Assembly: GCF_048403405.1 (NCBI RefSeq)
Contig: NZ_CP183129.1
Length of the DNA stretch: 64,000 bases
From: Escherichia coli
GTDB lineage: Bacteria > Pseudomonadota > Gammaproteobacteria > Enterobacterales > Enterobacteriaceae
Reading direction: 5' to 3' (one strand)
Positions 1,922 to 60,086 of the stretch are shown in pieces (within the stretch, counting starts at the first letter, position 1; each line of letters opens with the position of its first letter). The notes under the pieces were generated by a model. That model was not told where the DNA came from and made no database searches. It was given only the letters and a program-made list of their open reading frames with translations. Made by a program: the position numbers and the translations under genes.

Positions 1922-3570
1922 TTGGGACGATACTGAATCAGCACCAGACGCTCCTGACGATCGATGGCATCTGCGGGCGGAATGGCGAGACTGTTGATAT
2001 CTTCATCGCGGTCAACCGAAAGCACGAGTGTAATAATCCCCTCCTGACGATGTTGATTAAGCCAGTTTGCGAACTCATCACCGCTGACAAATCTCCCTTT
2101 CGCATCCGGATAATTAAGGCCGTATTTCAACTCACCTGTCTGGCGATACATGATGATGTCATCGCGTTGCAGGCTCCATGCCAGACCTGCGGCAACACCG
2201 ACGCTATCAGTAAGAATATAGCGGCTTGGCTGAAGTGATTCTTGTGTCATCTCGACAAAAAATTGCGGATGTTTTCCTTCCATGACTCTGTCAGGAATTG
2301 AAAATCCTACCAGCAACGCCAGCCCCAGCGGGCAAAGCGCGGCAAAAGACCAGGTCTTTTCGACGTTTGTTAAGGTGTACCAGCCGAAAAATGCCCATAG
2401 CGAAAAAATCGACCAGGCACAAAAGACTTTATAGCTCTCGAAGGTTTGCCACACTGGCGTGTTCATTGGTCCCCAGGGGGAGACCACAAATGTGGCAATA
2501 ATGCCAGTGACACCAAAAGTGATGTTAATCCAGCCATTAATCCGCAGCGCCAGAGGATTATTTTTTGCTGCCAGCAAAGCGTAATGCGCCATCAGCATTG
2601 CCAGAGGTGCAAAGCAGGAAAGAATATAGGTGGGCAATTTGCCTTTAGCGACGGAGAAAAACAGCAGCGGCATTATCGTCCAGCTCAACAAATAGACGGT
2701 TGCGGAATGCTTGCGGTTTTTCCAGCCTGCGTACAGTGCTCCGGGGAGTAATCCCAGCCACGGCAGGCTACCGGCAATGATGACCGGCAAGTAGTACCAG
2801 AACGGAGCTCTATGCTGAGCATCATCCATTGCAAAGCGTTGAATATGCTCAACCCAGAAAAAATAGTGCCAGAAGTCAGGCTCCCGCTGCGCTATCGCCA
2901 GTCCCCAGGGGAGAACCGTCAGTACGCAACTGATAACCGCCAGCCAGCCGTAAATAAAGAGATCTTTCCAGCGTTTTTGCGTTGCAACCCATGGAAGCAC
3001 GCTTAATACCGGCACGGCAAGGGCGAGAAAACCTTTGGTCATCACCCCCATGCCGCAGGTGATTCCCAGCAGTAAAAATCCTGCGCTTTTGCCTTTCCAC
3101 GTCTGTGCCTGCATTGCCAGCCAGAAGCTGCACATTCCCGCCACCAGCCAGAAGGCAATAAACGGATCGAGCACGGCATAAGTGCCGATGGCATAGACAA
3201 TGAACAATGAGAGGTAAATCACTGCGGCGAGTAATGCCAGACGTTTATCGCGCCATAAGCGCAGAGTAAACCAGGCCACCAGCGCGGCAGTTAACAGGGT
3301 CGCAAAGATAACGCCTGCCCGCACACCAAAGTTATTTGCGCCAAATAGCCATTGCCCAATGCTGTTAATCCAGTATCCGGCAATGGGTTTTTCGAAATAA
3401 CGTAGCCCTAACAGATGGGGCACAATCCAGTCGCCGGATGCCAGCATTTCCCGACTGATTTCCGCATAACGCGTTTCATCGGGTTGCCAGAGCAGACGCG
3501 TGCTGATCGGTAACAGGTAATAGCAGGCAATAAACGCGAAGAGGCCGATAAGGTAACGTACCGATTTCAT
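1918..3570 (-). CDS. arnT: 4-amino-4-deoxy-L-arabinose transferase (lipid A modification)
   Basis: 550-aa polytopic membrane glycosyltransferase; overlaps arnD and arnE junctions. Confidence 0.9.
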
Positions 3571-36683: not shown

Positions 36684-36735
36684 TGCGCCCGGCATTGTAG
36701 CCGGATGTGGTGCGAGCACCTTATCCGGCTAACAA
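36684..36735. repeat. REP-like palindromic element between yfaL and ubiG
   Basis: gcccggcattgtagccggatg...cttatccggctaac. Confidence 0.5.
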
Positions 36736-52272: not shown

Positions 52273-52919
52273 AAATCACCCCGTTGCGTATTCAGATCGG
52301 CGGCGACTTCAAACCGAGCTTCTGTTTTGGCACGCACGGTGGCTAAATCACACCCGTCGGCAATTTCGGTGAGCCACATTTTGCCGTCAATAAAACGAAA
52401 GACAGCCAGTTCAGTAACCAGCATATGCACCGCATGTTGCGCAGTGAGTGGCATGGTGCAGCGGCGCAAAATTTTTGCTGAACCATCTTTGGCACAATGT
52501 TCCATGGCGATGATCACTTTGCGCGACCCGGTCACCAGATCCATCGCGCCACCCATACCGGGCACCATTTTCCCAGGCACTACCCAGTTCGCGAGGTTTG
52601 CTTCTTCGTCTACTTGCAAACCGCCGAGCACGCAGGCATCAATATGACCGCCGCGGATTAGCGCAAATGACATGGCGCTATCAAACATGGCTGCACCGGG
52701 TAAAACACCGCACGGTTGTCCGCCAGCGTTCACCAGATCTGGATGCGCTGTCGTGACCGGGCCTAAACCGAGGAAGCCGTTTTCCGATTGCAGAGTGATA
52801 TGAATACCCTCCGGTAAATAATTGGCGACCATTGTGGGTAAACCGATCCCTAAGTTAACGATGTCACCATCACGAAGCTCTTGCGCCACACGGCGCGCAA
52901 TACGTTGTTTCGCATCCAT
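52269..52919 (-). CDS. atoA: acetate CoA-transferase beta subunit
   Basis: 216-aa 3-oxoacid CoA-transferase subunit B-type ORF. Confidence 0.9.
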   Translation of the reverse strand: MDAKQRIARRVAQELRDGDIVNLGIGLPTMVANYLPEGIHITLQSENGFLGLGPVTTAHPDLVNAGGQPCGVLPGAAMFDSAMSFALIRGGHIDACVLGGLQVDEEANLANWVVPGKMVPGMGGAMDLVTGSRKVIIAMEHCAKDGSAKILRRCTMPLTAQHAVHMLVTELAVFRFIDGKMWLTEIADGCDLATVRAKTEARFEVAADLNTQRGDL

Positions 52920-53581
52920 TATTTGCTCTCCTGTGAAACGATGATGTGGTCGATAACGGCACCAGGGGTGACAATATGGTCAGGTTGCAGCTCGCCGGTT
53001 TCGACCAGTTCATCTGGCTCTACCAGTGTGATATCAGCCGCAAGGGCTATCAGGGGGTTAAAGTTGCGGGCGCTAAGTTGATAGGTCAGGTTGCCAAGTG
53101 TGTCGCAACGATGAGCGCGAATTAGCGCCAGGTCGGCGCGCAGTGGGCGTTCGAGCAGCCAGGTTTTACCGTCGAGTGTCAGTGTCTGTTTGCCTTCCTC
53201 TACGACGGTGCCGACACCCGTTGGGGTGAGAAAACCACCAAGTCCAGCTCCACCACAGCGAATTTGCTCGATTAGCGTACCTTGCGGCACCAGAACGACG
53301 TCCATCTCACCAGATATCATGCGCCGACCTGTTTCCGGGTTGGTGCCGATATGTGAAGCAATCACTTTGCGGACTCGACCATTGACGATGAGCGGACCGA
53401 TGCCAGTATCAACAAACGCGGTATCATTGGCTATCAATGTCAGGTCGCGAACACCAGATTCCAGTAATGCTTCAACCAGGCGGGATGGAGTGCCAATCCC
53501 CATAAATCCGCCCACCATGATGGTCATGCCGTCACGAAAGAAGCCGGTGGCATCTTGTAATGTCATCAATTTTGTTTTCAT
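52919..53581 (-). CDS. atoD: acetate CoA-transferase alpha subunit
   Basis: 220-aa 3-oxoacid CoA-transferase subunit A-type ORF. Confidence 0.9.
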
Positions 53582-53626
53582 TTTTTATCCCTCTTGCATA
53601 CACCGTTGTGGGTACAGTCAGGGAAT

Positions 53627-53642
53627 AGCAAGGGGAGTGCCA
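53627..53642 (-). promoter_or_regulatory. sigma54 promoter (TGGCAC-N5-TTGCT) of atoDAEB
   Basis: Minus-strand tggcactccccttgct matches the -24/-12 consensus, about 45 bp upstream of atoD. Confidence 0.55.
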
Positions 53643-53724
53643 GAATGAGATTATTGGGTTTTGTTATTTAACTAATTGAATATGAAGGGATAAATTGGAT
53701 GAGGATTTATAAGGAGAATGAGCG

Positions 53725-53765
53725 GCTATGCAGAAAATTGCGCACTGTGCAAATATCTGCATAGC
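53725..53765. promoter_or_regulatory. AtoC enhancer: 41-bp palindrome
   Basis: gctatgcagaaaattgcgca-c-tgtgcaaatatctgcatagc upstream of the sigma54 promoter. Confidence 0.55.
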
Positions 53766-53776
53766 AAGTTTTGGCG

Positions 53777-55162
53777 TTATACATCCGCCGGATCGATACC
53801 GTATTCCTGGAGTTTATACATCAATGCACGGCGACTGATGCCCAGCATTAAAGCAGTGCGGGTTCGGTTTCCTTCTTGTTGTTCCAGCACTTCCATAATG
53901 ATGCGTTTTTCGACGCGTTTAATTTCCTCTTTTAAATTACGCTCACCGACAGGGGCTGTTTTTGCCTCACCAGCATTACAGACTGGCTGACGAATCTGCG
54001 GCGGAAGATCCTCAGAGAAAATGATCGGGCCTGAGTTCATCACGACGGCGCGTTCAATAACGTTGGAAAGCTCTCGAATATTTCCCGGCCATGACCAGGC
54101 GGTAAGCAGTGACATTGCCATCGGATCGATGTCGATAATATCGCGCTGATTCTCACTACTGAATTTTTGCAAAAAGTGATTAGCTAACAGGGAAATATCT
54201 TCCCGGCGATCGCGCAGAGGCGGCAGTATTAAATGAATAACGTTAAGGCGATAAAAGAGATCTTCACGGAAGGTGCCTTCTTTTACCATTGCCTGCAAGT
54301 CACGGTTGGTGGCAGCAATGATGCGGATATCAACTTTTATGGTCTGATGGCCGCCAATCCGTTCAAATTCCCGTTCCTGCAGAATGCGTAGTAATTTGGC
54401 TTGCAGTACGAGCGGCATTTCGCCAATTTCGTCGAGGAGCAGAGTACCTTCGTTGGCACGTTCAAATAATCCCTGACGCAAGGTTTGTGCACCAGTAAAT
54501 GCACCTTTTTCATGACCAAACAGTTCACTTTCGAGCAACGATTCCGGCAGCGCCGCGCAGTTGACTTTAATGAACGGCCCCTTTGCCCGCCGCGAATTGT
54601 AGTGAATCGCTCTGGCAATCAACTCTTTCCCGGTGCCGCTTTCACCGCTAATCAAGACGCTGGCCTGAGAAAGGGCAATTTTGGCGGTGTCTTTGCAGAT
54701 ATCCATCATCGCAGGGCTGTTGGTGAGAATGTGCCCCCATTGCCAGCTGGTGCTCAGTGCCTGGTGCAGATGACGGATCTCTTTTTTCATTGACTGGAGT
54801 TGTAAAGCGCGCTGAACGATTAAATTCAACTCATCGAGATCAAACGGTTTGATAACATAGTCGAAGGCCCCGCAGCGTAGCGCTTCGACGGCGGTTTCCA
54901 CTTCAGCATAGGCCGTCATCAGAATAACGGGGGTCCGTGTCTCATGGCTGCGCATCTCCTTGAGTGCCTTGATGCCGTCCATCTCTGGCATGCGGATATC
55001 CATCAACACCACGTCAGGGTGAATATCGGCAAACAGGTGTAATGCTGTGCGTCCGTTGTTCGCACAATGTGTTTCGAATCCTTGTAGTGCAAAAGCGGTG
55101 CTCAGCATACGGCGAACATTATCTTCATCATCCACAATAAGGATGCGATTAATAGCAGTCAT
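53777..55162 (-). CDS. atoC: sigma54-dependent response regulator AtoC (NtrC family)
   Basis: 461-aa ORF: receiver domain, AAA+ GESGTGKE Walker A, GAFTGA motif, C-terminal HTH. Confidence 0.9.
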   Translation of the reverse strand: MTAINRILIVDDEDNVRRMLSTAFALQGFETHCANNGRTALHLFADIHPDVVLMDIRMPEMDGIKALKEMRSHETRTPVILMTAYAEVETAVEALRCGAFDYVIKPFDLDELNLIVQRALQLQSMKKEIRHLHQALSTSWQWGHILTNSPAMMDICKDTAKIALSQASVLISGESGTGKELIARAIHYNSRRAKGPFIKVNCAALPESLLESELFGHEKGAFTGAQTLRQGLFERANEGTLLLDEIGEMPLVLQAKLLRILQEREFERIGGHQTIKVDIRIIAATNRDLQAMVKEGTFREDLFYRLNVIHLILPPLRDRREDISLLANHFLQKFSSENQRDIIDIDPMAMSLLTAWSWPGNIRELSNVIERAVVMNSGPIIFSEDLPPQIRQPVCNAGEAKTAPVGERNLKEEIKRVEKRIIMEVLEQQEGNRTRTALMLGISRRALMYKLQEYGIDPADV

Positions 55163-60002: not shown

Positions 60003-60086
60003 GCGGATAAGGCGTTTACGCCGCATCTGGCATTCAGTGCAAATGCCAGATGCGACGCTGACGCGTCTTATCTGGCCTACAGATGA
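60003..60086. repeat. REP element(s) between convergent rcsC and rcsB
   Basis: ggcggataaggcgtttacgccgcatctggca ... gccagatgcgacgctgacgcgtcttatctggcctac. Confidence 0.6.

Follow-up and report, generated by a model that had tools for sequence, protein, structure and literature searches.

The atoC-atoD spacer of an Escherichia coli genome as the very probable control region of atoDAEB, with a sigma-54 promoter and the AtoC operator

Genes and features of the atoC-atoD spacer

The window (the whole 64-kb stretch of E. coli DNA that we analyzed) contains two neighboring minus-strand genes, atoC and atoD, which are separated by a spacer of 195 bp. Along the minus strand, the order is the TAA stop codon of atoC, a gap of 11 bp, an inverted repeat of 41 bp, an A/T-rich stretch of 82 bp, TGGCAC-TCCCC-TTGCT, another 45 nt, and the ATG of atoD. 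The features, in that order, are:

53777..55162, minus strand: atoC, an NtrC-family sigma-54 enhancer-binding response regulator, with its TAA stop codon at 53779-53777
53725..53765, minus strand: AtoC operator (UAS), the 41-bp inverted repeat GCTATGCAGATATTTGCACA-G-TGCGCAATTTTCTGCATAGC, with the left arm at 53765-53746, the centre at 53745 and the right arm at 53744-53725
53755, minus strand: T in place of A at left-arm position 11 (in the alignment, K-12 and three further E. coli strains all have A)
53669..53681, minus strand: IHF-like block ATTCAATTAGTTA, with one mismatch to WATCAANNNNTTR, between the operator and the promoter
53627..53643, minus strand: sigma-54 promoter CTGGCAC-TCCCC-TTGCT, with the -24 GG at 53641-53640 and the -12 GC at 53629-53628
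53582..53619, minus strand: 5' leader of atoD, with the Shine-Dalgarno sequence AAGAGGGA at 53594-53588
52919..53581, minus strand: atoD, the first gene of atoDAEB, encoding the alpha subunit of acetate CoA-transferase, with its ATG at 53581-53579

We checked the gene calls with protein families. AtoC scored 1004 bits against the NCBIfam equivalog for AtoC (the cut-off is 714), and it has the Pfam domains Response_reg (110.7 bits), Sigma54_activat (252.9 bits), AAA_lid_14, and HTH_8 (54 bits). Its GAFTGA motif is at residue 220, and its DNA-binding part is a Fis-type HTH (the HTH_8 domain). The product of atoD scored 444.7 bits against its NCBIfam equivalog (the cut-off is 315). AtoS also exceeds its equivalog cut-off, and AtoA, AtoE, and AtoB follow downstream.

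Over 281 bp that include the spacer, the window has 100% identity to E. coli CFSAN061763 and 97.5% identity to K-12 BW25113. In E. coli genomes that bear the identical sequence, RefSeq labels its flanks as atoC and atoD. The atoC-atoD junction is present in 3923 of 5426 complete E. coli genomes, and the ato locus is lost or disrupted in about 28% of these genomes. One copy of the junction is plasmid-borne, and in genome H20, just 67% of the query is matched. On the plus strand, an ATG-initiated open reading frame of 90 amino acids (53718-53990) overlaps the operator and atoC's 3' end in antisense, and it is probably not a real gene. A search of 53300-54100 against Rfam at E ≤ 1 found no match, so Rfam offers no family for the spacer.

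A sigma-54 promoter upstream of atoD

The -24 and -12 elements are contained in TGGCACTCCCCTTGCT, at 53642-53627 on the minus strand, and exactly 45 nt lie between its last base and the ATG of atoD. The pattern TGGCAC-N5-TTGCW has a single exact match in the window, where 0.14 matches would be expected, and at least one match was seen in 14 of 100 shuffles. Matches with one mismatch occur elsewhere in the window at the background rate (5 seen vs. 3.3 expected).

Published data identify the same site. Table 1 of PMC4591121 (Bonocora et al. 2015) lists a sigma-54 ChIP-seq peak, OS21, upstream of atoD, and its motif, CTGGCACTCCCCTTGCT, is the identical 17-mer to 53643-53627 of the window. The row for OS21 is marked “C” in the EcoCyc column, which we read as the class of experimentally confirmed promoters. 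PMC8743547 describes a gSELEX peak for the RpoN holoenzyme within the atoC/atoD spacer, and PMC3118216 (Pilalis et al.), which cites Matta 2007, describes the expression of atoDAEB as sigma-54 dependent. Three sequence features of an activator-dependent sigma-54 promoter are found here: the -24 and -12 elements with their spacing, an adjoining activator with GAFTGA, and a dyad UAS 105 bp away, within the usual range of roughly 80-150 bp.

Transcription would start in the zone 53616..53619 on the minus strand, or about 35-38 nt before the ATG of atoD, with an uncertainty of about 3 nt. The geometry of sigma-54 promoters puts +1 near 53616, because the start is about 12 nt after the -12 GC and the C of this element is at 53628. 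AtoC is also said to leave a footprint from -146 to -107 relative to the start site; combining this with the ATG-based coordinates of the operator's left half-site (-184 to -165) puts +1 at about 53619. By our own arithmetic, the “Distance” of 35 that PMC4591121 gives for OS21 is the distance from 53616 to the ATG.

The AtoC operator

The inverted repeat is formed by two 20-nt arms around a single central base (20 + 1 + 20 = 41 bp), and the arms are complementary at 17 of the 20 positions (85%). If we require 20-nt arms and at least 17 matches, this is the one repeat in the window, and no such repeat arose in any of 200 random 64-kb sequences that shared its dinucleotide statistics. From the centre of the palindrome to the G of the -24 element is 105 bp, or about ten helical turns. 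An earlier note on this DNA, which was made from the sequence alone, had placed TGGCAC-N5-TTGCT about 45 bp upstream of atoD and a “near-perfect” 20-bp inverted repeat about 80 bp further upstream. The first distance is right to the nucleotide (the note did not give the strand, which is the minus strand), and the second is 82 bp. The repeat is indeed present, and beyond chance, while “near-perfect” slightly overstates 17 matches out of 20.

Two other inverted repeats with 20-nt arms, at 36695-36734 and 60018-60058, match at 15 of 20 positions. About one of these is expected per random 64 kb, so they may be due to chance. A direct repeat (D1; 53595-53611 and 53758-53774, 71% identity) was also considered, and it is probably a chance match whose two copies merely have TATGCA in common.

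PMC3118216 describes an AtoC operator that was published earlier (Matta 2007; J Bacteriol 189:6324), and the palindrome is this operator. According to PMC3118216, the site controls inducibility by acetoacetate, and ChIP detected AtoC on it in vivo, with binding that acetoacetate induces. The half-site that PMC3118216 locates at “-184 to -165” is, when counted from the ATG of atoD, exactly the left arm (53765-53746). PMC3118216 gives motif 1 as GCkATrCrrnnATTTrCwCA, and its motifs 1 and 2 match both arms in the window. The operator of K-12, GCTATGCAGAAATTTGCACA / TGCGCAATTTTCTGCATAGC (-184 to about -144 from the ATG), is identical to ours at 40 of 41 positions, and the sole difference is at 53755. 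Even in K-12, the published phrase “two identical 20-bp sites” does not hold literally. There, 2 positions differ between the arms, and here, 3 do. An asymmetry between them (GCACA in the left arm vs. GCGCA in the complement of the right arm) is kept in every lineage that we examined.

Conservation across species

Scanning genomes for AtoC gave at least six close orthologous loci (one from a divergent Escherichia and five from Citrobacter), in which AtoC is 83-90% identical and atoD is directly downstream. Besides E. coli, the footprint covers one divergent Escherichia and Citrobacter, which makes three clades. Across the six other species-level lineages, the mean identity to the window was highest in the palindrome (0.86), followed by the IHF-like block at 53681-53669 (0.79), the sigma-54 element (0.78), and the leader (0.75). 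The mean was 0.41 for the spacer between the palindrome and the IHF-like block and 0.55 for the spacer between that block and the promoter. The alignment shows, in other words, four conserved blocks between diverged spacers: the palindrome, the ATTCAAnnnnTTA block that resembles an IHF site, the promoter elements at -24/-12, and the leader.

The spacing is conserved as well. In all of the orthologous loci, the centre of the palindrome is 105-108 bp from the -24 G, and the promoter is exactly 45 nt from the ATG. Within the promoter, TGGCA and CTTGC are unchanged in 9 of 9 aligned sequences. In the divergent Escherichia (L005), G9 is replaced by A in both arms of the palindrome, which is what a symmetric protein site predicts.

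We also found the operator's layout in more distant bacteria. In a Nitrospiraceae MAG (L011), with AtoC 56% and AtoD 66% identical, the strict motif YGCA-N6-TGCATAG is directly past the stop codon of the regulator, a second unit (CGCA-N6-TGCG) is 20 bp from it, and TGGCAT-N5-TTGCT and then the atoD homologue lie downstream. A Deltaproteobacteria MAG (L012) encodes an AtoC-like protein that is 57% identical, and it has the same layout ahead of a homologue of AtoE (34% identity, E = 4e-84). In both loci, the CGCA-N6-TGCR units come as a pair, 20 bp apart, and immediately follow the stop codon of the regulator:

L011: paired units at 3389-3428, sigma-54 element at 3492-3507
L012: paired units at 3375-3408, sigma-54 element at 3519-3534

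Overall, the strict motif was found in 11 of the 11 ato-type loci that we fetched and in 0 of 72 loci of NtrC-family paralogues.

The block between the operator and the promoter resembles the binding site of IHF. The window contains 67 matches to the IHF consensus with one mismatch, where 54.6 would be expected; this is the chance level, so a match is not significant by itself. Because of this, the argument for the site comes from its position and its conservation: the block is kept across genera while its flanks diverge (79% cross-species identity). IHF is reportedly required for the induction of ato. We looked for evidence of IHF at ato in the papers available to us and found none; one paper contains both terms and uses them unrelatedly.

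The strain's allele and a possible pair of dyads

The window differs from K-12 by 7 substitutions in 281 bp, and one of these is inside the left arm of the operator. The T at 53755 reduces the symmetry of the arms from 18/20 (as in K-12) to 17/20. This is a minority allele: of 3902 genomes that match the region, 142 have the exact 61-bp allele with T at 53755. The position is an “n” in the published motif 1, and it varies between species as well.

More broadly, the palindrome's variation, whether between strains or between species, is limited to positions 11-12, 21, and 29-31. These are the centres of TGCA-N6-TGCA (in the left arm), of CGCA-N6-TGCA (in the right arm), and of the entire repeat. 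Because the variation falls at the centres of the dyads, it suggests two adjacent sites for AtoC dimers, an arrangement known from other NtrC-family activators. The palindrome might then be two adjacent 14-bp dyads, with centres 19 bp apart and one AtoC dimer on each, and the YGCA-N6-TGCR code and its position after the stop codon would be conserved from Enterobacteriaceae to the MAGs of Nitrospiraceae and Deltaproteobacteria. L011 and L012, each with two such units 20 bp apart upstream of an exact sigma-54 element, speak for this reading, and we would put the chance that it is correct at about even. (Against it, the relaxed unit YGCA-N6-TGCR is frequent by chance in the loci of paralogues; for the argument on specificity, we therefore use the strict form alone, which includes the TAG extension.) If the palindrome does comprise two dyads, then the A->T change at 53755 would lie at the centre of the left dyad, where AtoC makes no contact, and would be neutral.

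The leader and Spot 42

Between Escherichia and Citrobacter, the stretch 53582-53626 (the promoter-proximal region and the leader) is conserved almost to the degree of coding sequence. Within the leader, GTACCCA, GTATGCAA, and AGGGA are kept in all lineages. A small hairpin is predicted by RNAalifold at 53617-53596, with 6 of its 8 pairs invariant and with variation only in the loop and a bulge. The RNAalifold consensus has no covariation or compensatory change, which speaks neither for nor against the hairpin.

The start of the leader might be a target for a small RNA. Beisel et al. 2012, as cited in PMC7618054, reported that atoD is a target of Spot 42, and PMC6127932 includes atoD among the Spot 42 targets, in the Spot42-A1 motif group. 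In the window, CUGUACCC (53617-53610) could form 8 contiguous pairs with nucleotides 4-11 of Spot 42, whose sequence we checked against E. coli genomes. The compact duplex between nucleotides 1-12 of Spot 42 and nucleotides 2-13 of the leader has a predicted energy of -15.7 kcal/mol. In total duplex energy, the leader is no better than shuffled leaders (the fraction at or below the observed energy was 0.73 across 1000 shuffles), and it is not distinctive when compared to 3654 tiles from the window. (Duplexfold favors sprawling alignments, and we give only the compact 8-bp contact.) In the leaders from Citrobacter, the contiguous pairing shrinks from 8 bp to 6 bp. Given the complementarity, CUGUACCC is likely the site on the atoD leader where Spot 42 pairs.

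Alternative explanations

Instead of binding AtoC, or besides doing so, the inverted repeat might fold, as the last part of the atoSC mRNA, into a hairpin that terminates the transcript or stabilizes its 3' end. It adjoins the stop codon of atoC (11 nt), all of the orthologous and distant loci have it there, and the predicted fold of its RNA has an energy of -20.5 kcal/mol (z = -2.97 relative to shuffles). We consider this unlikely. A scan for terminators on the minus strand of the spacer found none, and the hairpin lacks a U tract downstream. All lineages keep a mismatched A.C pair in the stem (..GCACA on the left, TGCGC.. on the right), and conservation is concentrated in the TGCA-type tetrads, not in the potential for pairing. 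L011 and L012 have no single long inverted repeat, yet they keep the tetrads and the 20-bp spacing, which argues for selection on recognition by a protein. Binding of AtoC to the palindrome, moreover, is already published, according to PMC3118216.

The palindrome could also be used mainly by another NtrC-family activator, such as NtrC itself. NtrC has TGCACC-type half-sites, which resemble the inner TGCAC/GCGCA; TGCAC is included in the inner part of the palindrome. Also, in PMC8743547, the gSELEX peak in the atoC/atoD spacer rises from 48% with the RpoN holoenzyme alone to 77% when NtrC is added, though this rise may be just an effect of normalization, without meaning. We find it highly improbable that NtrC is the main user of the site. 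The ChIP and footprinting results described in PMC3118216 assign the site to AtoC, in an acetoacetate-inducible manner, and the motif accompanies the orthologues of atoC and is missing from the 72 loci of paralogues. Even less credible, and close to negligible in our view, is that TGGCAC-N5-TTGCT is silent or a chance match and that atoDAEB is driven by a sigma-70 promoter in the spacer. An exact sigma-54 consensus does arise by chance in 14% of shuffled 64-kb windows, and for many of the sigma-54 sites in E. coli, no function as a promoter has been assigned (PMC4591121). But sigma-54 occupies this exact motif in vivo, and we read its EcoCyc class as confirmed (PMC4591121); the core bases are invariant across genera, at a fixed 45 nt from the ATG; a scan of the minus strand of the spacer for sigma-70 promoters found nothing sigma-70-like; and the regulator next door, AtoC, is an obligate activator of sigma-54, with GAFTGA.

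A model for the control of atoDAEB

The spacer is very probably the canonical control region of atoDAEB, which would combine a sigma-54 promoter, the AtoC operator, DNA looping, and a layer of control at the leader. RNA polymerase with sigma-54 would wait, in a closed complex, at the -24/-12 element (53643-53627). Once AtoS has sensed acetoacetate, it would phosphorylate AtoC, which would then bind the 41-bp inverted repeat (53765-53725). AtoC would assemble into an AAA+ ring, and looping of the DNA would bring it into contact with sigma-54, probably aided by an IHF-induced bend at the ATTCAAnnnnTTA block (53681-53669). ATP hydrolysis would then open the promoter, and transcription would start about 35-38 nt before the ATG of atoD. 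After transcription, the 5' end of the leader, CUGUACCC, could pair with Spot 42, the published catabolite-repression regulator of atoD.

These features are those of an already characterized and well-studied switch, and an ordinary one, and nothing that we found contradicts the model. For K-12, the binding of AtoC to the palindrome, the occupancy of the same 17-mer by sigma-54, and the regulation of atoD by Spot 42 have been published, according to the sources cited above. Our analysis gives the exact sequences, their statistical significance, and their conservation; from sequence and geometry, we infer the details of looping, the use of IHF, the start site, and the contact with Spot 42. The earlier note had viewed the arrangement as the enhancer/promoter geometry expected for an NtrC-family regulator, AtoC, and this agrees with the published AtoC site, the OS21 17-mer, the domains of AtoC, and the conservation. 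The comparison that it proposed with published data on the AtoC site came out as the exact match of the left arm to -184 to -165 from the ATG (PMC3118216). Its calls of atoSC and atoDAEB are borne out by the equivalog scores of AtoS, AtoC, and AtoD and by AtoA, AtoE, and AtoB following. It omitted the IHF-like block and the conserved leader.

Beyond annotation, these results have little import. In the window, the atoSC-atoDAEB regulatory unit is intact and canonical. The gene calls can therefore be trusted, as can the prediction that acetoacetate or short-chain fatty acids induce the operon. The variant of the operator, the two-dyad reading, and the conserved leader might mainly interest engineers of AtoSC-based biosensors for acetoacetate and those who study DNA recognition by the NtrC family.

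Comparison with known systems

At glnAp2, phosphorylated NtrC binds paired dyads about 100-140 bp upstream of the -24/-12 elements and acts by looping and ATP hydrolysis. AtoC belongs to the same family, and it too would bind what may be paired dyad sites upstream of a -24/-12 promoter. In contrast to glnAp2, the ato units are of the form YGCA-N6-TGCR and are 19-20 bp apart, centre to centre, which is a different spacing. Also, the signal at ato is acetoacetate, via AtoS, and the operator abuts the stop codon of its own regulator.

The promoters of nifH and pspA, and Pu, are sigma-54 promoters that are assisted by IHF. As in these systems, ato has an A/T-rich block that resembles the IHF consensus between the activator's site and the promoter, and the position of the block is conserved. 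The ato block differs in having one mismatch to the consensus and in being a putative site, predicted from the DNA.

Within the Spot 42 (spf) regulon, atoD is a listed target, and Spot 42 has, in its single-stranded 5' region, the complement of CUGUACCC. The site at ato is predicted by complementarity, and it would take up the very first nucleotides of the mRNA (+1/+3 to +10).

The closest system is the promoter of atoDAEB in K-12. The window differs from it by 7 of 281 bp, including the A->T change at 53755, but the locus, the gene order, the sigma-54 17-mer, the position of the palindrome, and the spacing to the ATG of atoD are all the same.
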